Virus record (IMG/VR): IMGVR_UViG_3300043470_002422
Direction: 5' to 3' (one strand)
Length of the DNA stretch: 64,000 nt
Origin: a virus
Lineage: Duplodnaviria; Heunggongvirae; Uroviricota; Caudoviricetes
Part shown: piece after piece, positions 12,028 to 37,342 of the stretch
How positions within the stretch are numbered: position 1 is the stretch's first letter
Layout of the letters: the number at the start of each line of letters is the position of its first letter
Position numbers and translations under genes: made by a program
Notes under the pieces: model-generated
Database searches by the model: none
Seen by the model: only the letters and a program-made list of their open reading frames with translations
What the model was told of the DNA's origin: nothing

Positions 12028-12069
12028 CTCTGACCGTATATTCAATAAAATAACAATTAAAAAAATCAA

Positions 12070-12627: not shown

Positions 12628-12652
12628 TTCAAGCAAAATTAAAAAAACAGAT

Positions 12653-13480: not shown

Positions 13481-13499
13481 ATTTAAATTTAAACTTTAA

Positions 13500-13528
13500 A
13501 GGTCGCTAAATTTTAGCGACCTTTTTTG
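13500..13528 (+). terminator. Rho-independent terminator
   Basis: GGTCGCTAAA / TTTAGCGACC 10-bp stem followed by TTTTTTG. Confidence 0.7.
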
Positions 13529-13543
13529 TGTTTATTATTTACT

Positions 13544-13559
13544 GACCGTATATTTACTA
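13544..13559 (+). promoter_or_regulatory. Class A variant GACCGTATATTTACTA
   Basis: Upstream of ATG 13577. Confidence 0.5.
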
Positions 13560-13576
13560 AATAATAAATCAAAAAT

Positions 13577-18800: not shown

Positions 18801-20907
18801 TGGCTGCTTGAGTGATACGCTAAAAGACGAAGTGACGGTTTTTGGATTACCTATTGCCAACTATCTAGTTTCAACAGATACCTTCTGTTTCCCTGACCTG
18901 ACGCAGTTTTTGAACCAAAGTTTGGCTTCCTACAACTACACTTGGGATTTGGGCGATGGCACTGTAACAGGAACTACAAACCCCAAACATTTCTTCAAGA
19001 AAAGCTCAAGTCCATTTAGTGATACTACCTATTTCATCAAACTTGTTGCTACAAGCCCTTACGGATGTAAGGACACCGCAAACGGCAGTATGACCGTATT
19101 GCCTTACCCTATTCCAAAATTCAGTGTTGACAATCCTGCGGGTTGTGCGTCACACACAGTGAAGTTCAACAACCAGTCGGTAAACGTGTTGAATTACCTG
19201 TGGGTATTTGGAGATGGATATACATCAACCGATGTGAACCCTACCCATACCTTTATAAATACCGGTGCGAATGATACGGCGTATCAGGTTGTTCTTTATA
19301 CCTACTCTTTGGATTGTGTAGACTCTACTAGTATTTGGATACCAGTTTACAAGCCCTCGTATTCATTCTTCAGAACGGACCGGGTAAATCCATGTGATGC
19401 TGGATATTTTAAATTCCAGAGCTTTGGCGAAAATGCGCCAATTGTGAAGTACAATTTTGGTGATGGTAGCACATCAACTTTTCCCAACCTAACGCATTTA
19501 TTCCCAACCTCACCTTACACCGATACAAGCTTCATCGTTACACTATACACCACAAGCAATCGCGGTTGCACAGACAGCTTTAAACGCACAGTTACGCTCC
19601 CACAGCGACTTTCTATCGGAATGAAAGACACCAGTTATGCGCTATGTGCTCCGACGGTAATTCAGTTTACAAACTACACAAGGGGTGCACGCACATATAT
19701 TTGGGACTTTGGAGATAATGGAGGAAGTTCTCAGAAGAACCCAATTTATGAATACCAAAAACCGGGCTTATACGCATATAAGTTGTTTGCCTTTGACGCA
19801 AATGGGTGTATTGACAGTCAGGTTTCAAACGGCACTGTTCGTGTGGATGTGAGTCCTAAAGCGGATTTTGACTTTAGTCCTGGTAAAGGCCGCATGCCAA
19901 ATGACAACCGTATTTTCTTTACTGACAAGAGCCGCAGTGTGATACCACTGACCTATTTCTGGGATTTCTCGGATCCAGCGGGTATACCTGCAACGAGTAC
20001 GATTCAAAATGCAACCCACGATTTTAGCGACTCTGGAGACTATAAAATCTGTTTGACGGTAGATAATGGGGGTTGTAAGAATATATTTTGCAATTTTGTA
20101 CGCATCGATCCGGCATTTCCAACCCCAGATTTCTCGGTGGGTGGGGATTCGGGTTGCCCACCTCTTACCGTGCAGTTTACCAACCTTTCTGTGAACTCTG
20201 ACCGCTATATATGGTTCTTTGGTGACGGTGAAAGAAGCGAGGACAAAGACCCAGTCCATACCTATAAGTACAGCGGATATTACGACGTGATTTTGATCGC
20301 AAAAGGTCCAGGGGGTGAGGGTAAAACGGAGAAGAAGCAGTTCATAAAAGTATTGAATGCACCATTCACGTATTTCAATCTCACGCCCTCTATATTGTAC
20401 CTTCCTGATGCCAAATTCACAACTCGAAACCTGACTACTGGAGCTGTAGGATATCAGTGGAATGTGTACAACAGCAGCACTAGAAATCGAGTTGGGAATA
20501 GCCTTTTGGTGAATCCCTATTTCCAAGTAAACGATACGGGGCATTATGATGTGGAATTGATTTCAGTAAGCAGTCAGGTCTGTTATGATACCCTATTGTT
20601 GCCCAAGCCCATCTACGTGAATCCACGTGGCATATTGCATGTACCGGATGCCTTCACACCTACCAATGATGAACGCAACGATGTGTTTAAACCAAGCGCG
20701 ATAAACGTGCAAAAGGATTTCTATCTCTTCCAGATCTATAACAGATGGGGTGAAATCGTATTCGAAACCAAAGACCCCGATGAGGGTTGGGACGGCCGTA
20801 AAAAGGGCAAAATATGCCAAAGTGGAGTCTATGTATATAAAATCAATGCAAGACTCTTCAGCGGGGATGATATTTCAGCGGATGGTGTGGTTCACTTGAT
20901 TCGATAG
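15814..20907 (+). CDS. giant secreted protein (1697 aa) with PKD/Ig-like repeats and a CHU_C-type T9SS (gliding-motility-associated) C-terminal domain
   Basis: Signal peptide MAQKYLSKALAFALTLFATQGNLHAAC. At least 15 repeats of the W-D-F-G-D-G-T type. C-terminus VPDAFTPTNDERNDVFKP...IYNRWGEIVFE...GWDGR...GVYVYKI matches the TIGR04131-type CTD. GC content is higher than the surrounding genes. Confidence 0.75.
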   Translation: MAQKYLSKALAFALTLFATQGNLHAACGNLTPSFSNASNKTCGIPQVITLTNTSTGNSRNVATYKWYVGTTLLSTQVGKSTQKYTINTAGSYTFKLVAIDTGKVGCKDSTSTTITISASVPRILDGNRVNTYSPIWENCISSLGVPDTFGINIKPQDSLRNYTIVWGDGTGNSTGTLLLSSQSLYHKYNSLGQFTLLIIGTKGSCTDTLRGVVSNERNPVAGIVGPPTGTNAGCVPIRMRFINNSSLSSPSTTFTWDFGNGETIVRGFNTHKDTLFYTYKRFLCNGIVKLTQTNNCGSSFATWNPIMASSKDTAIIAPTNPTNCDLAVPFTFNNTSQNRFCSTPNNKKYLWVWGDGTNSGWSTSSASQSKTYSKRGVYQVLLIDSNGCGKDTARYTLRIDSMPTISAGPASAAGCSPLVVNFRDNSINATSRNWDFGYATPTSSAQNPTHTYQTGGTYRAVLTVANNCGSLKDTVLITVKQKVKANFNTPLTGCAPLTQKWTNTSVKGLAGTPTYFWDFGDGTTSTQVNPPDKTYSTLGTYTITLIATDSCGKDTIKKTFTVRGKPSATITLLSSSRCVGSTLDIRFVTSPVNTASVIWGDGTNGSSYFGLGGSVDRTVSRKYDSLRTYRFGVVMVDPSGCRDTNYLNIAMDPRPTMNYTYTTTNGCGPLDVTFTNTSAHNGGGNINQMKFLWNFSNGILAYSKDTAARFLPFKTRDSIYPVKLIGTNAFGCRDSITKTVRVYPKPLSKFSISEKDGCAPLDITTTNNSTPYDTGSINIMKFIWDFGNGRKAFGKDTAARFLASKTKDTVYTVSLISISEHGCRDTSSTTVRIYPKPKALFTRSKTEGCKPLGVTYVNQSVPYDTGNISIMSFAWDLGNRITSFATEPVGIYNDAINKDTTYKVRLIATSEHGCKDTANSTVLLHPNPVIKFDMSRTNGCGPLPVSFSNKSINGDAFTWEFGVYGTDTAKSPSKVFYGRDIFDSVVVVKLSAMSKFGCLSDTLKDEVTVFGLPIANYLVSTDTFCFPDLTQFLNQSLASYNYTWDLGDGTVTGTTNPKHFFKKSSSPFSDTTYFIKLVATSPYGCKDTANGSMTVLPYPIPKFSVDNPAGCASHTVKFNNQSVNVLNYLWVFGDGYTSTDVNPTHTFINTGANDTAYQVVLYTYSLDCVDSTSIWIPVYKPSYSFFRTDRVNPCDAGYFKFQSFGENAPIVKYNFGDGSTSTFPNLTHLFPTSPYTDTSFIVTLYTTSNRGCTDSFKRTVTLPQRLSIGMKDTSYALCAPTVIQFTNYTRGARTYIWDFGDNGGSSQKNPIYEYQKPGLYAYKLFAFDANGCIDSQVSNGTVRVDVSPKADFDFSPGKGRMPNDNRIFFTDKSRSVIPLTYFWDFSDPAGIPATSTIQNATHDFSDSGDYKICLTVDNGGCKNIFCNFVRIDPAFPTPDFSVGGDSGCPPLTVQFTNLSVNSDRYIWFFGDGERSEDKDPVHTYKYSGYYDVILIAKGPGGEGKTEKKQFIKVLNAPFTYFNLTPSILYLPDAKFTTRNLTTGAVGYQWNVYNSSTRNRVGNSLLVNPYFQVNDTGHYDVELISVSSQVCYDTLLLPKPIYVNPRGILHVPDAFTPTNDERNDVFKPSAINVQKDFYLFQIYNRWGEIVFETKDPDEGWDGRKKGKICQSGVYVYKINARLFSGDDISADGVVHLIR

Positions 20908-20973: not shown

Positions 20974-21324
20974 ATGGCAATAAAATACAAAGAGTTTAAA
21001 AAGAAATTACAAAACGAACCCCTAACCGAAGAGGAATTAACCATTATTCAGGAGACAGAAGATTATATTGACTCTGAAATTCTAAACCAATTTCCGAAGA
21101 GCAATTACGGAGAGGTTCTAATTGATTTGACTTATCCGTCTTTTACCTACTCTCATCAAAGAGGTTCTTTGATGGACTCAAATTCATATAGAAGATCCTT
21201 GATGAGATCCGAATTAGAAAAAAGATACAAATCAGCCGGATGGAAGATAGAGGTTAAATTCGACGATGGACTGGATGGACCTAATATGTCCGGTCCAGAT
21301 TATTGGATATTAAAAGGAAAGTAG
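20974..21324 (+). CDS. hypothetical protein
   Basis: ORF ending at a TAG. Confidence 0.5.
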   Translation: MAIKYKEFKKKLQNEPLTEEELTIIQETEDYIDSEILNQFPKSNYGEVLIDLTYPSFTYSHQRGSLMDSNSYRRSLMRSELEKRYKSAGWKIEVKFDDGLDGPNMSGPDYWILKGK

Positions 21325-21338
21325 GACCGTATATTTAT
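21325..21338 (+). promoter_or_regulatory. Class A variant GACCGTATATTTAT
   Basis: Upstream of ATG 21351. Confidence 0.5.
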
Positions 21339-21350
21339 AAAAATAACAAT

Positions 21351-22253
21351 ATGTTACAATTAAATTTAGCAGACTCAGATAAGTCACAGATCAAATTTAA
21401 ACCATCTGCATTTCCAGACGGCCAGCAATCAATCACTTTAGCTCTGTCCACAATCTCAGATCTAGAAATATCTTGCACAATCAAGTCCAGATTAAATTCT
21501 TTCAGGGATTTAGAACTCATAGTCTGCGCAGCAGCTGCATTGAGAGAAGCTGGAATGGAAAGAATTCACCTTTATATTCCATACTGTCTAGGCGGAAGAT
21601 CTGACATCAAATTTGAAGAAGGTGGCTTAAACTACATCAAGAGTGTAATTGCACCTATCATCAATTTACAAAAATTTACTTCTGTTACCGTCATGGATGC
21701 TCACTCGATAGCTCTAGAAAATTGCATTGATAATTTGAAAAAGCTAGACAATTCTTATCTTGCAAAATGGGCAATCAAGGATCTATCTTCAGAAGGAGGA
21801 GATTTCAAATTGGTCTCTCCTGATGCTGGAGCACTAAAGAAAATATTCTCAACAGCTAAATCTATCGGATATAAAGGAGAAATAATAGTTGCTGAAAAAG
21901 TTAGAGATTTATCTACCGGAAAAATTATTCACACCAAGGTACCTATAAACGTTTATGATGCAGATAAAGATTTTATCATTATAGATGATATCTGTGACGG
22001 TGGGAGAACATTCATAGAAATCGCCAAGGCTATAGAAGAAATGAGATCTTTAAGTTCAGTGGTTCATCCAGATAAGCACGGAAAAAATTACCTTATCGTA
22101 ACTCACGGCATCTTCAGCGCAGGATTTGAAGAACTTAGTAAATATTTTGATAGAATTTATACCACCAATTCTATCTCCGAAATAAACGAGTCTGAAAATT
22201 ACAAAGGTGCTGAATTTGATAAACAATTTGTTAAACAACTAAACGTATTCTAA
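21351..22253 (+). CDS. ribose-phosphate pyrophosphokinase (PRPP synthetase) family protein; candidate ADP-ribose diphosphokinase (Adps-like)
   Basis: PRTase motifs VMDAHS..., LVSPDAGALKK and IIIDDICDGGRTF. ATG 21351 follows the motif. Confidence 0.65.
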   Translation: MLQLNLADSDKSQIKFKPSAFPDGQQSITLALSTISDLEISCTIKSRLNSFRDLELIVCAAAALREAGMERIHLYIPYCLGGRSDIKFEEGGLNYIKSVIAPIINLQKFTSVTVMDAHSIALENCIDNLKKLDNSYLAKWAIKDLSSEGGDFKLVSPDAGALKKIFSTAKSIGYKGEIIVAEKVRDLSTGKIIHTKVPINVYDADKDFIIIDDICDGGRTFIEIAKAIEEMRSLSSVVHPDKHGKNYLIVTHGIFSAGFEELSKYFDRIYTTNSISEINESENYKGAEFDKQFVKQLNVF

Positions 22254-22254
22254 A

Positions 22255-22728
22255 ATGAAAGAAACACTAGAATTGAGAATGTATGGATTAGTTCCATATA
22301 ACTTAAGCCCCATCCAGCAAGGGATCCAATTTGGACACGCAGTTGTTGAGTATGGGTTAACCCATTTCGGAGAAAAAAATTACCGGGATTGGGCTAACAA
22401 TCATAAGACCTTTATCATTCTCAATGGAGGGACTACTAATAATTCCATAGATAAAGAAACAGGAAATCCAAAAGGAACTTTAAATCAGCATGCGGTAAAC
22501 CTTAGAGATATGGGGATTCCTTTTTGCACCTTTTATGAGCCTGACTTAGGGGATCAATTAACAGCAGTAGTTTTTCTAGTAGACGAACATGTCTTCAACA
22601 GAGAAAAATATCCGGATCCAAGAGATCCATTTAATCAGGATTGGGCTTGGTCTGAGCATCTTAGCACAGAAGAACTTTCTAGAGTTTTGCAAATGAGAGA
22701 CTTTTTAAAACAATTTAGATTAGCATAA
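22255..22728 (+). CDS. PTH2-like (peptidyl-tRNA hydrolase 2 fold) protein
   Basis: SPIQQGIQFGHAVV resembles the PTH2 GKxAAQCSHAAV motif, and the downstream segment has the matching topology. Confidence 0.4.
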   Translation: MKETLELRMYGLVPYNLSPIQQGIQFGHAVVEYGLTHFGEKNYRDWANNHKTFIILNGGTTNNSIDKETGNPKGTLNQHAVNLRDMGIPFCTFYEPDLGDQLTAVVFLVDEHVFNREKYPDPRDPFNQDWAWSEHLSTEELSRVLQMRDFLKQFRLA

Positions 22729-23249
22729 TGGAATCATACTCAGAAATAGAAGGAGATTTAATCTCATTAGCAAAGCAAGGTAAATTTGAAGTTATCACCC
22801 ATGGATGTAATTGCAGATCCCAAATGGGAGCAGGGATTGCACCACAAATGGCAAAAGCATTTGGATGCGATAAATTCGAAATGGAAACTTGGGGTCCAAC
22901 TATCGAAAAATTAGGCTGCATAGATTATGAAACTGTAGTTCTAGGAGAAAATGCAATCTGGAGTCTTCTGGATGCTAAAAATAACCGAAACGAACCTGAA
23001 TTGGCCGTTGTTAATTCTTACACCCAAAACTACTACGGAAAGAATCACTCAGATGGGGTTTCCAAACCTTTAGACTACGAGGCTTTAACCCTTTGCATGA
23101 GGAAGATCAATTCTACCTTTAGAGGCAAACACATAGGAATGCCAAAAATAGGAGCAGGATTAGCTGGAGGAGATTGGAACAGAATAAAAAAAATCATACA
23201 GACCGAATTAAAAGACTGTAAAGTAACTATAGTAATATACAACAAATAA
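22728..23249 (+). CDS. Macro-domain protein (Poa1-like ADP-ribose processing)
   Basis: ITHGCNCRSQMGAGIA matches the Poa1p HSCNCNGSWGGGIA macro signature. Confidence 0.6.
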   Translation: MESYSEIEGDLISLAKQGKFEVITHGCNCRSQMGAGIAPQMAKAFGCDKFEMETWGPTIEKLGCIDYETVVLGENAIWSLLDAKNNRNEPELAVVNSYTQNYYGKNHSDGVSKPLDYEALTLCMRKINSTFRGKHIGMPKIGAGLAGGDWNRIKKIIQTELKDCKVTIVIYNK

Positions 23250-23269
23250 ATTAAATAAAATAAAATATC

Positions 23270-23629
23270 ATGGACAATCAAATTGATGAAATGACCGGAA
23301 CCTTGGAAGAAATGAAAGGTGCATTCGTAGGCTCTTTAGTGCGTAACAACAAAAAGATCCGCGAAGACAGAGCAATCGCAATCGCAGAAGCTGCTCAAAT
23401 GCTCTACAAAAGAAAAGTTGAGGACACAGAATTAGCTATTAAACAGCTAAAAAGAGAAAGAGAATCTATGTTAGACCTTAGTCCAACAACAGCAGATTCT
23501 TTGGTAATGGCTTCAGATTTTGACGCAGAAGCTTTCATCCAAAAGGATGTAGAGATCGGTCTCAAAATTAGAAATTTAGAGATCACTCTAGAAATTGCAA
23601 GAACTCGTTACAACCACTTATTTGAATAA
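23270..23629 (+). CDS. coiled-coil hypothetical protein
   Basis: ORF with heptad-like repeats. Confidence 0.45.
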   Translation: MDNQIDEMTGTLEEMKGAFVGSLVRNNKKIREDRAIAIAEAAQMLYKRKVEDTELAIKQLKRERESMLDLSPTTADSLVMASDFDAEAFIQKDVEIGLKIRNLEITLEIARTRYNHLFE

Positions 23630-23634
23630 TCCGT

Positions 23635-24516
23635 ATGGGAAATTCAAGTTATTCTACCTATAATAGATCCATCAGATCCGAATCTTTTGGCTATCATAGC
23701 AAATCAAGAAACGAGATCTTTACCCAAAGTAAAGAGGGTAAAGCTCACGAGCAAATGAGACCTAAAGGAATCGTCTACAGAGAATGTAGAGATTCCGAGG
23801 CTCACCCGAATGCTACCCCGATTCAGCTTTATTTGGACGTTACCGGAAGCATGGGACATATTCCCCACGAAATGATTAAAGACGGTTTACCAACTTTAAT
23901 GGGGAATCTAATTCAAAGAGGTGTAGAGGATGCTTCCCTTATGTTTGGAGCTATCGGTGACCACGAATGTGACAAATCACCTCTCCAAGTTGGACAGTTT
24001 GAATCTGGTGACGAAGAATTGGACATGTGGCTTACCAGAACCTGGCTCGAAGGCGGAGGTGGTGGAAACGGCGGAGAAAGCTATCCATTAGCTTGGTATT
24101 TCGCAGGAAATCACGTTGCAACAGATGCTTGGGAGAAGAGAAACCAAAAAGGATTCGTATTCACTATCGGTGATGAGCCTTTCCTTAATTCTCTACCAAT
24201 GTCTGCAGTAAAGGAAATCATGGGGGATTCAGCATCAGGCCAATCTACTTGGGATGCTACAGTTCTTCTAGAACAAGCTCAAAAGACAAATCACGTTTTC
24301 CATATCTTCTTAGAACATGGTTACAGAAAAGTTGATTCGGCTTGGAAAGAATTAATGGGAGATCACCTTATAGTTGCAAAAGACTATAAAGATATCCCGA
24401 AAATTATCTCAGAAACAATTTTAACTATTCAAGGGGAAAGAAAACCTTCTGAGAATGCGACCGTATATTCTAGTAATACTACAGATGAAAAAGACTCTGT
24501 AGATATTATCCTATAA
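23635..24516 (+). CDS. vWA-like (MIDAS DxTGSM) domain protein
   Basis: LYLDVTGSMGHIP and a GGGGGNGG loop. Confidence 0.4.
   Translation: MGNSSYSTYNRSIRSESFGYHSKSRNEIFTQSKEGKAHEQMRPKGIVYRECRDSEAHPNATPIQLYLDVTGSMGHIPHEMIKDGLPTLMGNLIQRGVEDASLMFGAIGDHECDKSPLQVGQFESGDEELDMWLTRTWLEGGGGGNGGESYPLAWYFAGNHVATDAWEKRNQKGFVFTIGDEPFLNSLPMSAVKEIMGDSASGQSTWDATVLLEQAQKTNHVFHIFLEHGYRKVDSAWKELMGDHLIVAKDYKDIPKIISETILTIQGERKPSENATVYSSNTTDEKDSVDIIL
24459..24477 (+). promoter_or_regulatory. Class A motif embedded in the 3' end of the upstream gene
   Basis: GACCGTATATTCTAGTAAT, 40 nt before ATG 24516. Confidence 0.5.
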
Positions 24517-25574
24517 TGAATACGAGCAAAATAGTAATTGGACTAAACTACGGAGACGAAGGAAAGGGGTTAACCACCTCTTTCCTCTGTTCCCAATCTA
24601 AAAATCCCATCGTTGTTAGATTCAACGGGGGTCACCAAGCAGGTCACACAGTATCCTTCAAAGGAAAAAGACATGTGTTTTCTAGCTTTGGATCAGGAAC
24701 ACTTCAAAAAGTTCCAACGTACTGGAGCAAATATTGCACATTCTCTCCGACAGCATTTCTAAATGAATTAAAATTTCTACTGGATAAATCTTTAAAATTC
24801 CCAGGATTTTATCTTGATCCTTTATGTCCAATCACAACACCTTACGATTTATACAGCAACCGAAAAGATTCCCAGAATGTGAGTCATGGAACAGTCGGGG
24901 TAGGATTTGGATCAACTCTTAAAAGACACGAAAACTTTTATAAGCTTTATGCACAGGATATGTTCTATCCAGAAGTCTTCAAAGCAAAATTAGAAAACAT
25001 TGCTAAGTATTACGGAATGGAGGATCTCGAAATCGATAACTTTTTAGAAGACGTAACAATTGTAACTACTATAGTTCAATTGACAAATGAAAAAGTTCTT
25101 TTAAATTATTCAGATGCTATATTTGAAGGGGCTCAAGGGGTTCTTTTAGATATGGATTTTGGATTTTTTCCAAACGTTACCAGATCTAATACAACATCTA
25201 AAAATGCACTGGAAATTTCTCCTCTGCATTCAAACGAAATCTACTACATCACAAGATCTTATTTAACTAGACACGGAGCTGGATTTCTTCCAGGAGAAAA
25301 AGAACTTCCCCTAATTAATAATGAATTGGAGACAAACGTCTCTCATGAATACCAAGGAAATTTTAGAACAGCAGATTTAGATTTGGATCTTCTAAACTAT
25401 TCTTTAAAATGTGACTCTCATTTTTCTGAGGGTCAAACCAAAAATCTAGTAATTACCTGCATGGATCAATATCCAATAGATGTAGAAAAATTGCTAGAAA
25501 AATTAGAAATTAAATTCAATAAAGTGTTCGTCTCTTACGGGGATTCACTTGATAAAATACAACAATTAAAATGA
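24516..25574 (+). CDS. adenylosuccinate synthetase homolog, short archaeal/PurZ-like type (352 aa)
   Basis: P-loop GDEGKG and NGGHQAGHTV motifs. About 80 aa shorter than bacterial PurA, as in phage PurZ. Confidence 0.65.
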   Translation: MNTSKIVIGLNYGDEGKGLTTSFLCSQSKNPIVVRFNGGHQAGHTVSFKGKRHVFSSFGSGTLQKVPTYWSKYCTFSPTAFLNELKFLLDKSLKFPGFYLDPLCPITTPYDLYSNRKDSQNVSHGTVGVGFGSTLKRHENFYKLYAQDMFYPEVFKAKLENIAKYYGMEDLEIDNFLEDVTIVTTIVQLTNEKVLLNYSDAIFEGAQGVLLDMDFGFFPNVTRSNTTSKNALEISPLHSNEIYYITRSYLTRHGAGFLPGEKELPLINNELETNVSHEYQGNFRTADLDLDLLNYSLKCDSHFSEGQTKNLVITCMDQYPIDVEKLLEKLEIKFNKVFVSYGDSLDKIQQLK

Positions 25575-26044
25575 AAATAACAGAAAAATATGTCTTCTTT
25601 TGGAACGGGATTTATTCTCAGTGGCACAAAGCAAAAATGACAATCGACGGTGTTGAGTATAGCTCTTGTGAGCAATATATGATGCATCAAAAAGCTATCG
25701 TCTTCAGCGACTTTTATATTGCATCTCAGATACTTCTGACAGAGAATCCGAAAGAGCAAAAAGCACTCGGAAGACAAATTCAAGGGTTTGATAAAAACAT
25801 TTGGGATTCGGTTTGCTTGAGCATAGTCTATAAAGGAAATCTAGCTAAATTTTCTCAAAATGAGGATCTAAAATCAGATCTTCTTTCCACCGAGAATAGA
25901 ATCCTGGTAGAAGCTTCACCCTTGGATCAAATTTGGGGAATTGGAATGGCAGAGGATCATCCAAATATAGAATCTCCAGAACACTGGAGGGGACTGAACT
26001 TGCTTGGATGGGCGTTAAACTTAGTAAAAAAAGAATTAAATTAA
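25571..26044 (+). CDS. NADAR / YbiA (DUF1768) domain protein
   Basis: FFW...SQW......YSSCEQYMMHQKA...F...NPKEQKALGRQIQGF....W...L..KF.QN..L...LL.T....L.E.SP.D..WGIG. Confidence 0.6.
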   Translation: MKITEKYVFFWNGIYSQWHKAKMTIDGVEYSSCEQYMMHQKAIVFSDFYIASQILLTENPKEQKALGRQIQGFDKNIWDSVCLSIVYKGNLAKFSQNEDLKSDLLSTENRILVEASPLDQIWGIGMAEDHPNIESPEHWRGLNLLGWALNLVKKELN

Positions 26045-26284
26045 ATGAAAAGTACAGAATTTGCATATTGGTTACAAGGGTTCTTCGAACTTAGCGAAAC
26101 TAACACCTTGTCGGAAAGACAGGTCGAAACTATTAAAAATCATTTGAAGCTGGTTTTCTATCATGAGATAGATCCTTCCTATTCTACAGATCCTGTAGTA
26201 CAGGAAACCATGCAAAAAATTCACGACGGAGAACCTCAAAAGAGAACTCCGAGAAATTCTAACCCAAGAACTATAAAATGTTAA
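26045..26284 (+). CDS. small hypothetical protein (tandem paralog A)
   Basis: F..WL.GFFE...T..L.ERQVETIKNHL is shared with the next ORF. Confidence 0.45.
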   Translation: MKSTEFAYWLQGFFELSETNTLSERQVETIKNHLKLVFYHEIDPSYSTDPVVQETMQKIHDGEPQKRTPRNSNPRTIKC

Positions 26285-26547
26285 CCATGGAAGAAACAAG
26301 AAATTTTGTTATCTGGCTTGATGGATTTCTAGAAGCTTGCGGGCCAACTCCAACTAAGGAGCAGGTCGAAAAAATAAAATCCAGGCTGAATGGAATTTTT
26401 GAGCATGTTGCAGAAATCCCAGCTAAGGAGAACGAAAAACCGTCTCTAGAGGAATTAGGACAAGAACATGGATTTAATGTATATCCCGGATTTCCTGGAT
26501 CAGGATTTCCTTTTAGAGATGAAGGTGGTGGTTTATTAAGATGCTAA
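26278..26547 (+). CDS. small hypothetical protein (tandem paralog B)
   Basis: FVIWLDGFLEA...PTKEQVEKIKSRL. Confidence 0.45.
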   Translation: MLTMEETRNFVIWLDGFLEACGPTPTKEQVEKIKSRLNGIFEHVAEIPAKENEKPSLEELGQEHGFNVYPGFPGSGFPFRDEGGGLLRC

Positions 26548-26892
26548 ATGAGTAGAGTAATTTATATAGCTTCTCCTTATTCTAATCCCGACCCTGATGT
26601 TACCGAGGAGAACTTTAAAAAAGTCTCGAGGCTTGCGGCTAAGCTTTGCTCAGAGGGTCAGGTTGCAATTTCCCCTATTACTTATGGTCACACGCTGGTT
26701 GGATTTAAACCAATGCCAATTGACTGGCCATTCTGGGAGAATTTTTGTCTTTCCATTCTCCAGGCTTGTGACGAAATCATAGTTTATAAAATGGAAGGTT
26801 GGGATAGATCGAGAGGTGTTGCAGAAGAGGTCGAATTTGCCAGAAGAAAAGGAATCCAGATCACGTATATGGAATATGATCCTTCTATCTAA
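26548..26892 (+). CDS. nucleoside 2-deoxyribosyltransferase-like superfamily protein
   Basis: IYIASPYS...V.SPI....W...CDEII.....W..S.G...E...A...G matches the Rossmann-like NDT/DNPH1 pattern. Confidence 0.5.
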   Translation: MSRVIYIASPYSNPDPDVTEENFKKVSRLAAKLCSEGQVAISPITYGHTLVGFKPMPIDWPFWENFCLSILQACDEIIVYKMEGWDRSRGVAEEVEFARRKGIQITYMEYDPSI

Positions 26893-26906
26893 CCGTATAT
26901 TTAAAT
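26891..26906 (+). promoter_or_regulatory. Class A variant AACCGTATATTTAAAT
   Basis: Upstream of ATG 26918. Confidence 0.5.
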
Positions 26907-26917
26907 AAAATACCTTT

Positions 26918-27361
26918 ATGGAATTAAGAGAATATTTCGAAACAAATCCGGACTCTATCCCTTATCTAGAAAGACTAGAAAGTGAATGGGAACAGTATGG
27001 AAAGATAATCATCGGATGTGATTATGACGACACAATTTCCCCATGGAAGATGGAGAATTTTAATCCAGAAAGGGTTCTAGAAGTTCTAAAGGTTGCTAGA
27101 GAAACCGGAGCTTACATCGTAATCTTTACTTCTTGTGACAAAGCAAGATATCCAGAAATCGAAGACTATTGTAAAAGCATTGGCCTCACAATCGACTCGA
27201 TCAATAAAAATCCAATCGACTTACCTTACGGTAAAAAAGGTAAAATCTATGCCAACATTTTCCTGGATGACAGAGGTGGAATGAATGAATCCCTAAACAT
27301 TCTAGAAATGGCAACGTATAGAATTAGAGGAAAAAGAAGAGTTTTAGGAATCAACGTATAA
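26918..27361 (+). CDS. HAD-superfamily phosphatase-like protein
   Basis: Motif I CDYDDTI and a late IFLDDR motif. Confidence 0.45.
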   Translation: MELREYFETNPDSIPYLERLESEWEQYGKIIIGCDYDDTISPWKMENFNPERVLEVLKVARETGAYIVIFTSCDKARYPEIEDYCKSIGLTIDSINKNPIDLPYGKKGKIYANIFLDDRGGMNESLNILEMATYRIRGKRRVLGINV

Positions 27362-27541
27362 TTAAGAAAATGAAAATGAACCCAAAAGAAAAAGAATTGG
27401 AAAATATCCAATCCCAACAAAACCCTTCAAAAGAGGTTAATCCAACCGAGTCTGTAATAATAAAACAGATCGAGGATGATTTTGAATATCAAGAATATTA
27501 TTCAGAAAATTCTCCTAATTTCGACGTAGATTAATCAGGAG

Positions 27542-27556
27542 GACCGTATATTCAAT
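27542..27556 (+). promoter_or_regulatory. Class A variant GACCGTATATTCAAT
   Basis: Upstream of ATG 27572. Confidence 0.5.
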
Positions 27557-27571
27557 AAAATAATAAATATT

Positions 27572-29101
27572 ATGTTTAAATGTAATTCACTATTCTACAC
27601 AGACGGCTACAAAATTGGCCACAAAAGAATGCTAGCACCAGGAACAACTCGTTTATACGGAACCTGGATTCCACGAAGTATTAAACACGCTCCAAAAGGA
27701 GTTAAAAAAATCGTATCGTTTGGCCAGCAACTAGCTGTTAAATGGTTACACGATGAATTCGAAGAAAATTTCTTCAAGCTTCCTTTAGAAGAAGCAATGG
27801 AATTCGGAAATGATATGGCAATGTATCTCGGCCTCGAGTATGATGCTTCTCATTTCGAAGCTCTCCACAAATTAGGTTACTTGCCTATCAAAGTTAAATC
27901 TTTACCAGAAGGTATCGAAACTCTTCCAAATGTTCCACACATGACCTTCATTAATACCGTGGATGGATTTGCTTGGTTAACCCTTTATTTGGAAACCATC
28001 ATCTCTTCATTAGCTTGGAAGCCTTCAACATCAGCTACAATCGCTTTACAGTACAAAAGAAACCTGATCGAATGGGTAAGAAAAACAGACCCTAAAAACA
28101 TCTGGTTAGTTCCTTTCCTAGCTCACGACTTCTCGGCTAGAGGTTTGTCTCCTTGGGACATGTTAGCAAGCGGTTTAGGACACGCTACATCATTCAGAGG
28201 TTCAGACACAATAGTTTGTATCCCAGCAGCTCGATACTTCTACAACGAGCCTAAAAACGAGGTCTGCATCAATTCTGTAAACGCTTCAGAACACTCAGTA
28301 TCTACCACCAAAATTTTCACAGTCGGCGAACAACAAATGATAGCAGACTGGTTAAGAGAATTCGACAAAGGTATCCTTTCAATCGTTTCAGACACATTCG
28401 ATTTATGGACACTAATCACCAAATATTTACCTGCCAACAAAGAGGCTATCATGGCCAGAGACGGTAAATTGGTTATCAGACCTGACTCAGGAGACCCAGT
28501 AGATATTATTTGCGGATTAGAAAATAAAGTTCTTGAGGAAGGAGTGGGATATAAAGAAGAATACAAAGAAAGCCCAGAATACAAAGGAGTTATCGAATTA
28601 CTTTGGGACATCTTCGGAGGTACAATCAACGAAGAAGGTTACAAAGTACTTGATCCTCACATCGGAGCAATCTACGGGGACTCTATTACCTTGGACAGAC
28701 AAATCCAAATCTACGAAAGATTAGCAGCTAAAGGATTTGCAACTACCAATATCGTTTTAGGTATCGGTTCTTACACCTACCAAATGAACACCAGAGACAC
28801 CTTAGGCTTCGCAGCTAAAGGAGCATGGTTCGAAGTAGAAGAAAACGGTACTAAAGTAGGCTACGACATCTACAAAGATCCTATCACAGACGATGGAACT
28901 AAGAAATCCTTAAAAGGACTTATTAGAGTCGATGAAGTTTCAGTAACTTCCGAGGAAACTGGAATTACTTATACTAAGTATGAAGTAAAAACCCAATGTA
29001 CCCCAGAACAAGAAGAAGGAGGCATCTTACAAACCATCTACGAAAATGGTAAATTCTACAATCAAACTACATTAACTGAAGTTAGATCAAAATTAAACTA
29101 A
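27572..29101 (+). CDS. nadV: nicotinamide phosphoribosyltransferase (NAMPT/NadV) family; candidate Namat
   Basis: 509 aa with the N-terminus MFKCNSLFYTDGYKIGH, typical of NAMPT. Confidence 0.7.
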   Translation: MFKCNSLFYTDGYKIGHKRMLAPGTTRLYGTWIPRSIKHAPKGVKKIVSFGQQLAVKWLHDEFEENFFKLPLEEAMEFGNDMAMYLGLEYDASHFEALHKLGYLPIKVKSLPEGIETLPNVPHMTFINTVDGFAWLTLYLETIISSLAWKPSTSATIALQYKRNLIEWVRKTDPKNIWLVPFLAHDFSARGLSPWDMLASGLGHATSFRGSDTIVCIPAARYFYNEPKNEVCINSVNASEHSVSTTKIFTVGEQQMIADWLREFDKGILSIVSDTFDLWTLITKYLPANKEAIMARDGKLVIRPDSGDPVDIICGLENKVLEEGVGYKEEYKESPEYKGVIELLWDIFGGTINEEGYKVLDPHIGAIYGDSITLDRQIQIYERLAAKGFATTNIVLGIGSYTYQMNTRDTLGFAAKGAWFEVEENGTKVGYDIYKDPITDDGTKKSLKGLIRVDEVSVTSEETGITYTKYEVKTQCTPEQEEGGILQTIYENGKFYNQTTLTEVRSKLN

Positions 29102-29112
29102 AAAAATCGGTA

Positions 29113-29135
29113 TCACCGGGGGGTTTCCCCGGTGA
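29113..29135 (+). terminator. Strong GC hairpin (TCACCGGGG / CCCCGGTGA) overlapping the next class A motif
   Basis: 9-bp perfect stem after the NAMPT stop. No T-run, and it merges into GACCGTATATCACC. Confidence 0.4.
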
Positions 29136-29176
29136 CCGTATATCACCAAGAACAATTAATCAATAAAAAATAAAAA

Positions 29177-31099
29177 ATGACAATCCAATTAGCTTTAAGC
29201 TACGCATGGGTATTAATCCCGCTCCTAGCAATTGTGTTTTACAAATTCACATTGCGAGTATTCTTCGGTATGATCATCATCCCGGAAGACAAAATCGGTC
29301 TAGTTACAAAGAAATTCGTTCTCTTTGGTTCTAATAGATCTCTACCAGACGGTAAAATTATCGCACTTAATGGAGAAGCAGGTTTCCAAGCAGATCCATT
29401 AGCTCCTGGTTTGTATTGGTTCTACTGGGTATGGCAGTATTCTGTCGATGAAGCTTCATTAACCGTTATCCCACAAGGAAAAATTGGTCTATTATCAGCT
29501 AAAGACGGTAATCCACTTCCAACCGGTTCGATTTTAGCCCGTCACGTAGAATGTGATAATTATCAGGATACCAGATCTTTCTTAACACAAGGTGGACAAA
29601 GAGGTAAACAGGTAGGTTATCTTAACAACGGTGTATATCGTATTAACACTTTCTTATTTGACATCTCAGTTACTGAAATCACTTATATCGAAGATGGAAT
29701 GGTAGGTGTAGTAACAGCTTTAGATGGTATTCCACTAGGTCCAGGTAGCATTGCAGGTAACCAAATCGAAGGTCACAACAACTTCCAGGACTTTGATAAA
29801 TTCTTAGGAGCCGGCGGTCAAAGGGGTTTACAGACTCAAGTTATCCAGGCAGGTTCTTACTCACTTAACCCTTGGGCAGTAGAGATTGAGAAAAAAGAAA
29901 TGACTCAAATTCCTATCGGTCACGTTGGGGTAGTAATCTCATTCGTTGGAGAAGAAGGAGTAGACACAAGTGGAGAGACCTTCAAACATGGTAATATCGT
30001 TAAGAAGGGTCAAAGAGGGGTATGGGCAACACCATTAGATCCAGGTAAATACGCAATCAACCCTTACACTCAAAAAATCGAGATCGTACCAACCACTAAC
30101 TTGGTTCTTAACTGGGCAAATGCTCGTAACGAATCTCACAATCTGGACAAGAACTTAAGTACAATTACAGTTCGTTCCAAAGACGGTTTTCCATTCAATA
30201 TCGATGTATCTCAGATCATCCACATACCAGCAAATGAAGCACCCAAGGTAATCGCAAGATTTGGATCAATGGCTAACCTAGTATCTCAGGTTCTAGAACC
30301 AACGATCGGTAACTACTTCCGTAACTCTGCACAAGACTCAGATGTTATTGCTTTCTTGGCAACTCGTCAGCAACGTCAAAATGCGGCCAAAGACAATATT
30401 TCTAAAGTATTGGATGAATACAACGTTCATGCAGTAGATACACTAATTGGGGATATCGTTCCCCCTGAATCTCTAATGAAAACCCTAACCGATCGTAAGA
30501 TTGCACAGGAAGAAGAGATAACATTCGAAACTCAACGTAAAGCCCAAGACCAACGTAAGACTTTACAGTCAGCTAAAGCTCTAGCAGATATGCAAGGAGA
30601 GATGGTAAAAGCACAACAGTCAGTTGAAATTGCACAACGTGAAGCAGAAGCAGCAGTTAAGAAATCTGAAGGATCTGCTAAAGCGTTAGAATTAACCGCT
30701 GGTGGTAACGCTAAAGCTCTAGAATTAAAAGCTAATGCAGAAGCTAAAGCTAAGAAAGTAATGGCAGAAGCAGAAGCCCAACAAATCAAATTGACCGGTG
30801 AAGCTCAAGCTTTATCTATCGAGGCAATTGGTAAATCAACAGCCGAGTCTTACAGATTACAAGTAGAAGCAATGGGAGGCGACAACTTTGCTAACTTCAA
30901 AATCACTGAAGCAATCGGAGAAAACAAAATCAAAATTATCCCTGAATTCCTAATCGTAGGAGGTAACGGAGAAGCTAACCCAATGTCAGGACTATTAGGC
31001 CTTGAATTACTTAAAAAGTTCCAAGGTAAAGACCAAGACAATTCGGTTAAAACGATCGAGGTTAAATCAGAGGTTAAAGAAGAACCTAAAAAGAAATAA
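29177..31099 (+). CDS. flotillin-like SPFH/Band-7 membrane protein with three N-terminal ~60-aa repeats and an EA-rich coiled coil
   Basis: N-terminal TM. Repeats of the form G.....G..L..G.I.......NFQD...FL..GGQRG.Q. C-terminal AEAEAKAKK-type repeats. Confidence 0.55.
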   Translation: MTIQLALSYAWVLIPLLAIVFYKFTLRVFFGMIIIPEDKIGLVTKKFVLFGSNRSLPDGKIIALNGEAGFQADPLAPGLYWFYWVWQYSVDEASLTVIPQGKIGLLSAKDGNPLPTGSILARHVECDNYQDTRSFLTQGGQRGKQVGYLNNGVYRINTFLFDISVTEITYIEDGMVGVVTALDGIPLGPGSIAGNQIEGHNNFQDFDKFLGAGGQRGLQTQVIQAGSYSLNPWAVEIEKKEMTQIPIGHVGVVISFVGEEGVDTSGETFKHGNIVKKGQRGVWATPLDPGKYAINPYTQKIEIVPTTNLVLNWANARNESHNLDKNLSTITVRSKDGFPFNIDVSQIIHIPANEAPKVIARFGSMANLVSQVLEPTIGNYFRNSAQDSDVIAFLATRQQRQNAAKDNISKVLDEYNVHAVDTLIGDIVPPESLMKTLTDRKIAQEEEITFETQRKAQDQRKTLQSAKALADMQGEMVKAQQSVEIAQREAEAAVKKSEGSAKALELTAGGNAKALELKANAEAKAKKVMAEAEAQQIKLTGEAQALSIEAIGKSTAESYRLQVEAMGGDNFANFKITEAIGENKIKIIPEFLIVGGNGEANPMSGLLGLELLKKFQGKDQDNSVKTIEVKSEVKEEPKKK

Positions 31100-31114
31100 C
31101 CAAAGCTAACTAAT

Positions 31115-31147
31115 AAAAATCCCAGTAGCAATGCTGGGATTTTTTGT
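31115..31147 (+). terminator. Rho-independent terminator
   Basis: AAAAATCCCAG / CTGGGATTTTT stem followed by a T-run. Confidence 0.65.
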
Positions 31148-31203
31148 TGTGAAACATAGGAGGTAAGACAATCTATAATACTTAAACATTATAAATAAAC
31201 ATT

Positions 31204-31683
31204 ATGGCAAAAGTAATCAAACCAACAGACTCAGATCAAGAAGTAGAATTTTATCCGGCAGTATTTTTAGCAGGATCCATCGAAATGGGAAAAGCTGAAG
31301 ACTGGCAAAAAACAGTTGAGAAAGAATTAGAAAAATTAGACGTTACAATTTTTAATCCTAGAAGAGATGACTGGGATAGCTCATGGACTCAAGAGCAATC
31401 TAATCCACAATTTAATCATCAGGTTAATTGGGAGTTGAACAAATTGGAAAGATGTGATGCCATCTTCATGTACTTCTCTCCAGAAACACAATCTCCAATA
31501 TCTCTACTAGAACTAGGAAGATATTCCACATACGGAAAAATGATTGTTTGTTGTCCTAAAGGATTCTGGAGAAAAGGAAACGTAGATATCCTTTGCACCA
31601 GAGAAAATATTCCAGTATTTGAGGATCTACAATCTGCTATCGGGGCTTTGAAAACTAGAATCAACCAACAAATAATAGATTAA
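31204..31683 (+). CDS. nucleoside 2-deoxyribosyltransferase-like (Nuc_deoxyri_tr2-type) protein
   Basis: VFLAGSIEMG...FNPRRDDW...CDAIFMYF...S.ISLLELG. An AGGAGG Shine-Dalgarno-like sequence lies upstream. Confidence 0.5.
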   Translation: MAKVIKPTDSDQEVEFYPAVFLAGSIEMGKAEDWQKTVEKELEKLDVTIFNPRRDDWDSSWTQEQSNPQFNHQVNWELNKLERCDAIFMYFSPETQSPISLLELGRYSTYGKMIVCCPKGFWRKGNVDILCTRENIPVFEDLQSAIGALKTRINQQIID

Positions 31684-31724
31684 TAGAATTAAATAATCCT
31701 CCTTTGTAAGATCTATTCATTATC

Positions 31725-31739
31725 GACCGTATATTTAAT
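31725..31739 (+). promoter_or_regulatory. Class A variant GACCGTATATTTAAT
   Basis: Upstream of ATG 31753. Confidence 0.5.
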
Positions 31740-31752
31740 AAACAAGAAATAA

Positions 31753-32202
31753 ATGGCAGTAATCGGAATTAATTACGAGGGGGGAAATTACCACGACGAG
31801 GAAGACAATTTAGTTGAAGATGAGATTATTTACGAATTTGTTTATCTTCACACCTCGGAAAAAGAAATGATTTTTAACAGTGGAAATTTTCCCAAGGACT
31901 GGTATGATGCTAAGAAAGCTTTCATAACTTTACAGGAAGAAAATCCAAATGACCCTAATTATTTTCATTTATCTGGATCCTCTACATGCGATCATTTTAT
32001 CATGGATGGTGCAAAATTTGACTCGGCTTACCTGCACGTGGAGGGAGAAACCCCCGTTCTAAAATACTGTATTCCGTATGAGCATCCACCTTCAATCGAG
32101 ACGATGGTCGAAAACAGATCAATTTATGAAGGAGGTTGGGAATTCTTTGTTCCAGAAGGAACTAAACCAACCTGGGAAGAATTAAAAGAATCATTTAAAT
32201 AA
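31753..32202 (+). CDS. hypothetical protein
   Basis: ORF after the motif. Confidence 0.5.
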   Translation: MAVIGINYEGGNYHDEEDNLVEDEIIYEFVYLHTSEKEMIFNSGNFPKDWYDAKKAFITLQEENPNDPNYFHLSGSSTCDHFIMDGAKFDSAYLHVEGETPVLKYCIPYEHPPSIETMVENRSIYEGGWEFFVPEGTKPTWEELKESFK

Positions 32203-32211
32203 AAAATCAGC

Positions 32212-32943: not shown

Positions 32944-32948
32944 AATAT

Positions 32949-37256: not shown

Positions 37257-37276
37257 TTTAAAACTAAAACTATGAA

Positions 37277-37305
37277 GCTCTAGATTTTCGGATCTAGAGT
37301 TTTTT
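37277..37305 (+). terminator. Rho-independent terminator
   Basis: CTCTAGAT / ATCTAGAG stem with a TTTCGG loop, followed by TTTTTTT. Confidence 0.7.
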
Positions 37306-37342
37306 TGTGAAATATAAATTCGGATTTAATCTATAACGGGTA

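Follow-up and report, generated by a model that had tools for sequence, protein, structure and literature searches.

We analyzed a 64,000-nucleotide stretch of viral DNA (Caudoviricetes; IMG/VR record IMGVR_UViG_3300043470_002422), hereafter the window, and propose that its gene island at 21351-31683 is likely a locus for reconstituting nicotinamide adenine dinucleotide (NAD+) in a jumbo phage, with the NARP1 enzymes Adps and Namat spread over 7.7 kb together with accessory genes. The core of the island is an already described system (NARP1/NARP1-AP) in an unusually rich form. In the proposed mechanism, host NADase effectors (TIR, SIR2, SEFIR, DSR, and NIR) would cleave NAD+ into ADP-ribose (ADPR) and nicotinamide, Adps would combine ADPR with ATP to give ADPR-PP, and Namat would join ADPR-PP to nicotinamide to restore NAD+. 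A macro-domain protein encoded between the two would act as an Adpp-type phosphatase that returns ADPR-1''-phosphate (ADPR-1''P), the product of RES-type NADases, to ADPR, which would make the locus a NARP1-AP. Among the accessory genes, the one for a HAD-superfamily phosphatase is the most consistently linked to NARP1, and its product is apparently a widespread and previously undescribed NARP1 partner.

Putative core enzymes of the pathway

We filed the protein at 21351-22253 (+ strand) as a putative Adps with a PRPS-like fold, outside the housekeeping Prs enzymes, because it conserves the binding residues of ICP1 Adps, scores below the cutoffs of the Prs models, and matches phrog_619 at 4e-59. 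The match to Pfam Pribosyltran was weak, and every NCBIfam Prs model failed: TIGR01251 gave 82.7 bits (cutoff, 113) and the equivalog models 22-57 bits (cutoffs, 296-536). Cellular Prs structures in the PDB matched weakly, from 2e-12 at best to 2e-4. By alignment, identity was 57% to Leptolyngbya phage Lbo-JY46, 32% to Bas61 (a BASEL phage with a canonical two-gene operon), 29% to ICP1, 25% to K412, and 20% to Escherichia coli Prs. The ICP1 Adps structures place the ADPR/ATP contacts at F18, R87, F92, H121, D161, K185, D212-D213-I214-C215-D216-G217, S220, and F221, and the hallmarks of the family are a PP loop and donor site remodeled at C215-D216-G217...S/T220-F221, the catalytic beta-hairpin Lys185, and the acceptor residues F18, R87, F92, H121, D161, D212, and D213 (PMC13586617). 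The window equivalents are F21, R83, F88, H118, D158, K183, D212, D213, I214, C215, D216, G217, T220, and F221, such that all of the contacts are kept or conservatively replaced, with Thr in place of S220. The PP loop CDGGRTF is the same as in Bas61, and the longer DDICDGGRTF contrasts with DDMIDTGGTL in E. coli Prs, which departs from Adps-specific positions with I223, T225, L229, and V101. Homologs were found in about 1085 phage records, which is comparable in scale to the count of 859 NARP1 phages given by Osterman et al. (bioRxiv 10.1101/2024.02.11.579819).

The protein at 27572-29101 (+ strand; phrog_448, 2e-157) is, as judged from its sequence, a Namat of the NAMPT family rather than a NadV. 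Its best PDB matches were 9W5X and 9W5W (E 2e-113, 46% identity), which are SPbetaL1 Namat according to the Namat paper (PMC12774641), compared with 4e-47 (Xanthomonas) and about 1e-40 (mammalian) for true Nampts. Identity was 41-46% to the Namats of Bas61, ICP1, and K412 versus 30% to the NARP2-type NadV of nt-1. In the phage collection, NARP1-type homologs were mostly 34-45% identical to it (67% for Lbo-JY46), and KVP40-like NARP2-type NadVs were 26-31% identical. The Nampt-like catalytic core is complete (D11, Y13, F187, R190, D212, the catalytic H241, R303, D305, and R408; in the Namat reference, D13', Y15', F189, R192, D215, the catalytic His, R306, D308, and R399'). The SCH helix motif reads GSYTYQMNTRD versus GGGLLQQLDRD in nt-1 NadV; its length, its register, and the Tyr at position 3, the first adenine-stacking position, fit the consensus, and position 7 is Met and not aromatic. 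The rule for the SCL loop asks for Arg, Lys, or Tyr as the third residue, with the fourth residue stacking when the third is Lys or Tyr. The window loop S36-I37-K38-H39, aligned to SPbetaL1 T38-S39-R40, has Lys followed by His and fits the Bas63-type form of this rule, by which His39 would stack on the adenine. The NCBIfam nicotinate phosphoribosyltransferase model NF006629 scored the protein just above its cutoff.

A crude motif scan of the 64-kb window found neither the HIGH motif of nicotinamide mononucleotide (NMN) adenylyltransferase (NMNAT) nor a Nudix box in any real ORF (open reading frame). A NARP2 reading was dropped on the 30% identity to NadV and the lack of NMNAT or Nudix motifs within the window.

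The closest cultured relative of both enzymes is Leptolyngbya phage Lbo-JY46 (L001, 8817-13026), with 67-74% identity for Namat and 45-57% for Adps. This phage has two hypothetical genes between Namat and Adps, followed by genes annotated as SNO glutamine amidotransferase, gamma-glutamyl cyclotransferase, and ATP-grasp, which is a different accessory set. Just past the Namat stop codon in the window lies a GC-rich hairpin with a 10-bp stem (29112-29136, ATCACCGGGG...CCCCGGTGA), preceded by an A-run on the + strand. No other strong hairpin occurs in the island, and a transcription unit may end here.

Gene linkage in related viral loci

All substantial ORFs at 20974-34219 are + strand genes that overlap or are separated by short gaps, and Namat is the 12th gene by ORF count, 5.3 kb downstream of Adps. 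The island consists of the following genes.

21351-22253, + strand: Adps candidate, PRPS-like
22255-22728, + strand: g157, 157 aa (phrog_3668, "hydrolase")
22728-23249, + strand: macro-domain protein, Poa1p/Adpp-like (Pfam Macro; phrog_335)
23270-23629, + strand: g119, 119 aa, without a family match
23635-24516, + strand: vWA-domain protein g293, 293 aa, with a MIDAS-like motif (phrog_2971; AlphaFold 2 [AF2] model and Foldseek)
24516-25574, + strand: PurA-like protein of the adenylosuccinate-synthetase family (Pfam PF00709, Adenylsucc_synt, 2e-41)
25571-26044, + strand: NADAR protein, YbiA subfamily (Pfam NADAR, 5e-50)
26045-26547, + strand: g79 and g89, small paralogous ORFs of 79 and 89 aa (phrog_28500/phrog_35763)
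26548-26892, + strand: DUF1937 protein, fold like that of nucleoside deoxyribosyltransferases (NDT-like; Pfam DUF1937, 1e-19)
26918-27361, + strand: HAD-superfamily phosphatase, 147 aa (motifs; AF2 model)
27370-27534, + strand: g54, a 54-aa ORF
27572-29101, + strand: Namat candidate, NAMPT family
29177-31099, + strand: SPFH/band-7 (flotillin-like) protein (Pfam Band_7, 3e-26)
31204-31683, + strand: PF15891 protein, NDT-like (Pfam PF15891, 9e-38)

We examined the linkage of these genes in two surveys that together covered about 130 related viral loci. The Namat-centered survey took 53 IMG/VR loci with a Namat 40-84% identical to that of the window, searched them with all island proteins, and counted a gene when it lay within 10 kb of Namat. 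The HAD-centered survey took the best 80 of 347 IMG/VR relatives of the HAD phosphatase, down to 32% identity, and recorded neighbors within 6 kb. The clustering of Adps and Namat is not due to chance, given that 45 of 53 loci had Adps no more than 10 kb from Namat, usually within 1-2 kb. The gene for HAD was near Namat in 29 of 53 loci and mostly directly adjoined it, followed by PF15891 (22/53), macro (14/53), SPFH (11/53, always immediately downstream of Namat), NADAR (8/53), DUF1937 (8/53), and PurA-like (2/53, both of them weak matches at 23%). None of the 53 loci had g293, g119, or the small ORFs near Namat. The closest IMG/VR locus, L007, has the order Adps-macro-NADAR-DUF1937-HAD-Namat-SPFH-PF15891, and locus L009 carries a tight Adps-HAD-Namat-PF15891 run of overlapping or near-abutting ORFs.

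The whole island is kept in a close relative, L065, a 391-kb contig with 70-97% protein identity for most genes. When the island was compared by megablast with 50,697 phage genomes, no match was returned; relatives therefore exist only at the protein level.

L065 also shows insertions within the island. Its Namat (11157-13571) is split into two ORFs of 274 and 255 aa by an insertion of about 0.86 kb, which contains an oppositely oriented ORF of 262 aa and could be an intron or a homing-endonuclease insertion. A GIY-YIG/NUMOD3 gene lies between macro and g119 in the same contig.

The macro and HAD phosphatases

The macro protein matched Pfam Macro at its gathering score and phrog_335 ("phosphatase") at 1e-41. 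Its PDB matches were BT1257 (4e-9) and yeast Poa1p, an ADPR-1''P phosphatase (6LFU, 9e-5), and it was 26% identical (E 1e-12) to a "phosphatase" that Vibrio phage K412 encodes between Adps and Namat. Its gene is the second ORF downstream of Adps, and the presence of a Poa1p-like macro gene within two genes is what distinguishes NARP1-AP. The protein is thus a Poa1p/Adpp-like candidate ADPR-1''P phosphatase by sequence, and if it is of this type, the island core matches the published NARP1-AP.

The HAD protein had no Pfam match. Its motifs I-IV are kept (DxDxT as D35, D37, and T39; T71; K109; D117-D118) and are invariant or nearly so across homologs of 27-95% identity. The best folds for its AF2 model (pLDDT 88) were BT_0820 (2OBB), the Pnkp1 and T4 PNK phosphatase domains, lipin, and YrbI, all weak structural matches with E-values of 4e-3 and above. 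In the HAD-centered survey, Adps and/or Namat were found in 63 of 80 loci and both in 54, and the usual layout placed Adps at -0.8 kb and Namat at +0.4 kb on either side of HAD. Among cultured phages, the homolog was within or beside NARP1 in every lineage opened (five unrelated lineages), with the order Adps-Namat-HAD in Bacillus phage Nemo, Namat-HAD-Adps in the Crassvirales phages DAC17 and cr126_1, Adps-HAD-Namat in the T5-like Vibrio phage VPT02, and HAD-Namat in Tenacibaculum phage PTm1. Lak megaphages seem to be an exception, as judged from match coordinates in different Lak genomes and not from a single record. The genes for HAD and macro were anticorrelated in the Namat-centered loci (both, 2; macro only, 12; HAD only, 27; neither, 12; Fisher P = 5e-4, uncorrected for relatedness), which hints at analogous roles. 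Among the papers covered by our literature search, including the supplementary tables of the aRES/NARP1-AP preprint, none linked a HAD phosphatase to NARP1.

NADAR, NDT-like, and SPFH neighbors

The NADAR protein scored 152.6 bits on TIGR02464 (cutoff, 73.7), and its last-strand sequence ILVEASP carries Glu as read by eye. This residue is Glu in the YbiA subfamily, Asp in DarT1-linked NADARs, and His in those of the T4 gp30.3 type, and NADARs of all tested subfamilies hydrolyze ADPr-guanine on DNA (PMC11125620). By analogy, the same reaction in the window NADAR would also release ADPR.

PF15891 is a second recurrent NARP1 partner and the second most frequent accessory gene; it was also near HAD in 16 of 80 loci. 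The DUF1937 gene lay directly upstream of HAD in 8 of the 53 Namat-centered and 6 of the 80 HAD-centered loci, and its product also matched Pfam DUF7768 and DUF4406. For each of these NDT-like proteins, a PDB sequence search returned an uncharacterized structural-genomics entry as the sole relative (1T1J for DUF1937 and 4MCJ, 4e-28, for PF15891). By analogy with RyDEP, an accessory enzyme of another NARP1 locus, one may guess that they are glycosidases whose substrates derive from NAD.

The SPFH protein has a hydrophobic N-terminal segment, by eye a membrane helix, and a C-terminal tail that by eye is rich in Ala, Glu, and Lys. In crAss phage cr126_1, too, an SPFH gene comes after the NARP1-HAD cluster. 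Besides the window, the SPFH observation covers L062 7399-8190.

A separate vWA-PurA-like module and lineage-specific genes

The vWA protein g293 had no Pfam match. A Foldseek search of the PDB with its AF2 model (pLDDT 74) gave 104 matches at an E-value of 1e-3 or lower, and all 50 of those listed were vWA or integrin I-domains. Homologs invariably keep the MIDAS-like D68-x-T70-G71-S72 together with T177 and D180, and identity was 60-94% among the top 120 of about 4100 homologs. The adjoining PurA-like gene is divergent and belongs, by family cutoffs, to neither PurA nor PurZ: its product scored 128 bits against 402 on the PurA equivalogs and 40.4 bits against 300 on the PurZ model NF038379, the latter over the N-terminal 57 residues only. 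Its best PDB match was E. coli PurA (2e-28, residues 5-261 only), no chain named PurZ appeared among its PDB matches, and by eye it is without the conserved PurA segment TTGRxRR. It is about 32% identical to the "PurA-like" genes of cluster-type mycobacteriophages.

A PurZ/Z-genome assignment, suggested by the family-level label of phrog_1211 ("2-aminooxy adenylosuccinate synthetase"), was rejected on the N-terminal-only PurZ match (40 versus 300 bits), the Asp kept in the N-terminal GDEGKG, and the grouping with the mycobacteriophage "PurA-like" genes.

In the phage collection, the distributions of the two genes run in parallel (g293, Mycobacterium 201, Rhizobium 10, and Vibrio 6; PurA-like, 202, 10, and 6), and the two adjoin in Mycobacterium phage Asterius and Vibrio phage Va1. 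They form an independent conserved two-gene module outside NARP1, located at 23635-25574 (+ strand) in the window and at 2965-5614 in L069 and 4001-6083 in L070. In both the window and L065 the pair sits between macro and NADAR.

The remaining small genes showed no conserved NARP1 linkage in the two surveys. g157 had no informative match in Pfam, NCBIfam, or the PDB even at permissive thresholds, though by eye it may resemble hydrolases of the PTH2 type; it occupies the same position only in L065 and was present in 3 of 53 and 2 of 80 loci at variable distances. g119 had no family match and is conserved only in L065. Both g79 and g89 match phrog_35763 over their N-terminal ~40 residues and are therefore likely tandem paralogs; L065, the only contig to keep them, has a single 98-aa gene in their place, and g54 is kept in L065 as well. 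We regard g157, g119, the small ORFs, and the vWA-PurA-like pair as probable lineage-specific insertions outside the pathway.

An earlier note on this DNA, made from the sequence alone, had named most of these genes, and they do exist at those places as codirectional + strand ORFs. Its assignment of the Prs-like and NAMPT-like proteins to Adps and Namat, and not to Prs and NadV, was borne out at the residue and family levels; the first protein fell outside the Prs models and the second was closer to SPbetaL1 Namat (2e-113) than to Nampts. The lack of an NMNAT motif and the Poa1p type of the macro domain (6LFU, 9e-5) were likewise confirmed, and the NADAR, HAD, NDT-like, and vWA folds were all found. 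The note had placed two NDT-like genes between the pair, which holds for DUF1937, but PF15891 lies downstream of Namat, after an SPFH gene that the note left out. Its "PurA homolog" stands as a Pfam family match but is far below the PurA and PurZ cutoffs, and its list included the HAD phosphatase without recognizing it as the most strongly linked accessory gene. The view of one combined island did not hold, with the vWA-PurA-like pair forming a separate module in Mycobacterium, Rhizobium, and Vibrio phages without NARP1 linkage and g157, g119, g79, g89, and g54 unlinked. The note's statement that the island is denser than the two-gene NARP cassettes known to date is partly superseded: extensions have been published as NARP1-AP and RyDEP with NARP1, and NADAR/Macro neighborhoods have been reported (PMC9503650).

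Genomic setting

The source is most likely a jumbo phage (about 390 kb) of a Bacteroidota host. The window contains many ORFans and a Lon-like protease, the best match of the macro protein among cultured phages is from a Cellulophaga phage, and a tRNA scan found none.

Directly upstream of the island (15814-20907, + strand) is a gene for a 1697-aa PKD-repeat protein with a C-terminal CHU_C type IX secretion sorting domain. Its GC content is 0.42-0.44 versus about 0.37 for the island, and in L065 its place is taken by a NUMOD3 homing-endonuclease-like gene; the PKD/CHU_C gene looks like a recent acquisition from a Bacteroidota host. Directly downstream (32212-34219, + strand) are genes for a PolyA_pol-head (CCA-type) nucleotidyltransferase, an RNase T-like exonuclease, and a HAD_SAK_2 "Swiss army knife" phosphatase, an RNA-repair-like trio that is kept in L065 and rarely found near NARP1 elsewhere. 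Farther along, 36315-38302 (+ strand) encodes a DNA methyltransferase (N6_N4_Mtase) and then a methylenetetrahydrofolate reductase of full length (MTHFR, 1e-65), which is unusual among phage auxiliary metabolic genes, and 40329-43873 (- strand) encodes a MoxR-like AAA_5 ATPase, a DUF2201_N putative metallopeptidase with a KOW motif, and a DUF2201 VWA-like protein.

Discussion

The accessory genes raise the question of what else the locus could feed into NAD+ synthesis. The HAD protein would be a second, structurally unrelated dedicated phosphatase and would most likely return another phosphorylated ADPR species to ADPR. Candidate substrates are ADPR-1''P, which would make it an Adpp analog, 2'-phospho-ADPR derived from NADP+, and breakdown products of ADPR-PP, whose spontaneous decay was observed by Osterman et al. 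(bioRxiv 10.1101/2024.02.11.579819). Alternatively, it may be a pyrophosphatase that pulls the Namat reaction forward. The NADAR, DUF1937, and PF15891 proteins, which are more loosely linked, are probably further "feeder" or signal-destroying glycosidases that would release ADPR or nicotinamide. More specifically, we tentatively suggest that HAD, and perhaps PF15891 and DUF1937, are dedicated NARP1 feeders for NAD+-derived products that have gone unrecognized as immune outputs, a proposal that on balance we consider doubtful. Candidate substrates in that case are phospho-ADPR other than the aRES product, 2'-phospho-ADPR, and N-glycosidically cyclized ADPR signals.

We considered it quite possible that the functional unit comprises Adps, Namat, macro, and HAD only, and that NADAR, DUF1937, PF15891, and SPFH are independent auxiliary or antidefense genes that merely gather in an early hypervariable region of large phages, with NADAR, for example, reversing guanine ADP-ribosylation of phage DNA of the DarT1/YarT type. 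The linkage of these four genes to Namat is much weaker (22/53 for PF15891, 11/53 for SPFH, and 8/53 each for NADAR and DUF1937), ADPr-guanine on DNA is a substrate for every NADAR subfamily tested, NADAR and macro genes show enrichment and co-occurrence in large myoviruses with or without NARP1 (PMC9503650), and the homing endonucleases and other insertions in L065 mark the region as a hotspot. On the other hand, PF15891 occurs in tight four-gene Adps-HAD-Namat-NDT runs (L009) and sometimes between HAD and Namat, and L007, L014, L015, and L078 have these same genes again in varying order. This explanation and the feeder proposal are not exclusive, given that ADPR released by NADAR would be a NARP1 substrate. 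A role of macro, HAD, and NADAR in RNA (tRNA) repair appears unlikely. There, HAD would be a PNK-type 3'-phosphatase working with the downstream nucleotidyltransferase, exonuclease, and HAD_SAK_2 protein, and macro would clear ADPR-1''P made by a Tpt1/KptA-type 2'-phosphotransferase. The folds matched by the HAD model, which include the Pnkp1 and T4 PNK phosphatase domains, the PolyA_pol-head, RNase_T, and HAD_SAK_2 genes at 32212-34219, the native role of Poa1p in tRNA splicing (bioRxiv 10.64898/2026.01.28.702374), and the tie of Macro and NADAR to RNA repair drawn by Iyer et al. (PMC9503650) all favor such a role. However, Adps and Namat both lie within 6 kb of HAD in 54 of 80 loci, the commonest layout has HAD directly between them, with no need for RNA-repair genes, and the CCA, exonuclease, and HAD_SAK_2 genes are near NARP1 in only 4, 3, and 1 of 53 relatives. 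The island and its immediate surroundings yielded no ligase or kinase gene, although no search of the window was aimed at a ligase, a kinase, or Tpt1/KptA.

Ordinary salvage is less probable still. In that case, Prs would make phosphoribosyl pyrophosphate (PRPP) and NadV would make NMN, with an NMNAT elsewhere in the ~390-kb genome or from the host, and the locus would be NARP2-like or auxiliary metabolic. Both proteins do belong to the Prs and NAPRTase superfamilies, NF006629 scored just above its cutoff, Namats keep some PRPP-dependent NMN synthesis in vitro (PMC12774641), and our NMNAT scan covered 64 kb of the genome. Against this, residue-level Adps and Namat signatures are present, the Prs models are below their cutoffs, identity is 20% to E. 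coli Prs and 30% to NARP2-type NadV compared with 32-57% and 41-74% to NARP1 proteins, and the window has no NMNAT or Nudix motif. Finally, we regard it as extremely improbable that the island is a defense or toxin-antitoxin locus, DarTG-like or NADAR-based, of a prophage or bacterial chromosome. Weak PADLOC matches (macro to DarG, 3e-8; NADAR to the candidate system component PDC-M42C, 5e-49) and the bacterial look of the adjoining 1697-aa PKD/CHU_C protein would fit such a locus, but the PADLOC matches are at the fold level only, Pfam and PADLOC scans found no DarT/ART toxin or other effector among the island proteins, and the relatives are IMG/VR viral contigs, including the 391-kb phage-like one.

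For a NARP1-based NAD+ reconstitution locus, a number of observations pull the other way. The evidence consists of homology, motif conservation, and gene linkage, and all enzymatic activities are inferred from sequence. The surveyed loci are phylogenetically nonindependent. In the Adps clade, a Namat gene is associated in 97% of cases, with a working rule of within 10 genes; here the gap of 11 ORFs and 5.3 kb is beyond the 10-gene NARP1 window of Osterman et al., and the literal rule is narrowly missed if all small ORFs are counted. The macro family occurs in about 2200 phage genomes, with most copies away from NARP1, and its presence alone is therefore weak evidence. Structurally, the HAD model is nearest to the polynucleotide 3'-phosphatases that act in RNA repair, and the genes next downstream of the island form an RNA-repair-like cluster. 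Macro and HAD are both present in the window island, L007, L040, and L065, and are therefore not simply interchangeable. Scans of the island for sigma-70 promoters and terminators were at chance level, and sigma-70 rules are unsuited to a Bacteroidota host. At position 7 of its motif, the window Namat has Met in place of the adenine-stacking Tyr396 of SPbetaL1. We treated Met-7 as a likely clade variant and not a disqualifier because it is common in Adps-linked loci (23 related loci, 21 with Adps nearby) and because single clamp mutations in Namat cost only 1.3- to 1.7-fold in vitro (PMC12774641).

NAD+ depletion is used against phages by an estimated >15-20% of bacteria (quoted in the aRES preprint, bioRxiv 10.64898/2026.01.28.702374), and NARP1 is the main known phage answer to it. 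Each accessory enzyme so far found beside NARP1 has exposed a host chemistry that was new: the production of ADPR-1''P by RES-type NADases in the case of Adpp, and the recyclability of Thoeris signals in that of RyDEP. A third accessory enzyme of another fold, found inside the operon in many unrelated phages, is therefore a lead to another substrate and possibly to another defense. If HAD is a dedicated feeder for unrecognized immune products, the spread of the Adps-HAD-Namat operon among Bacillus, Vibrio, crAss-like, and freshwater phages would point to a common, undiscovered mode of bacterial NAD(P)+ destruction or signaling. Our findings also suggest that "within 10 genes" neighborhood rules can miss NARP1 in jumbo phages, where the pair is split by mobile modules.

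Comparison with known systems

NARP2 (NadV and NatV, KVP40) and NARP3 (PnuC and NadR, Bas30; PMC13464706) serve the same purpose, the restoration of NAD+ during infection. Unlike these, the window encodes a NAMPT-like protein that is 30% identical to NARP2-type NadV and is without its loop sequence, and the window has no NMNAT, Nudix, or NadR motif. The survey of Iyer, Burroughs, Anantharaman, and Aravind (2022; PMC9503650) described NADAR beside phage NAD+ salvage genes and the co-occurrence of Macro, NADAR, and SLOG, and reported that viral DrHyd domains are of the ARC type only. As in the window, NADAR stands by NAD+ salvage genes and Macro and NADAR occur together in large phages; that survey is older than NARP1 and reads the pair as NadV-type salvage, and we found no NARP-linked HAD phosphatase in its text.

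The closest counterpart is NARP1 of Bas63, SPbetaL1, Fado, and ICP1 (bioRxiv 10.1101/2024.02.11.579819, PMC12774641, and PMC13586617). Here too, both enzymes have the family active-site residues, Adps and Namat are on one strand and adjoin in relatives, and an NMNAT would be unnecessary. The window differs from the two-gene operon in that the pair is 5.3 kb and 11 ORFs apart and Namat has Met at clamp position 7, and it differs from characterized members in its 29-46% identity to them and in its jumbo-phage setting with a host that is probably a member of the Bacteroidota. NARP1-AP was described in Vibrio phage Gary with the order Adps-Adpp macro phosphatase-Namat, in which Adpp turns the product of a RES-type NADase into ADPR, and it occurs in 15% of NARP1 phages (bioRxiv 10.64898/2026.01.28.702374). 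The Poa1p-like macro gene of the window, two ORFs after Adps, resembles this arrangement and is homologous to the operon-internal phosphatase gene of K412, whereas its 26% identity, the extra ORF between it and Adps, the second (HAD-type) phosphatase, and the wide spread of its family outside NARP1 set it apart. RyDEP with NARP1 in mycobacteriophage DyoEdafos (bioRxiv 10.64898/2026.05.28.727677) provides a precedent for an accessory enzyme that converts a NAD-derived molecule into ADPR for NARP1. In contrast to that locus, no RyR-domain protein was found among the island proteins by Pfam, and the candidate feeders have HAD, NADAR, and NDT-like folds. With its macro, HAD, NADAR, and two NDT-like genes, the window carries the fullest known accessory set.

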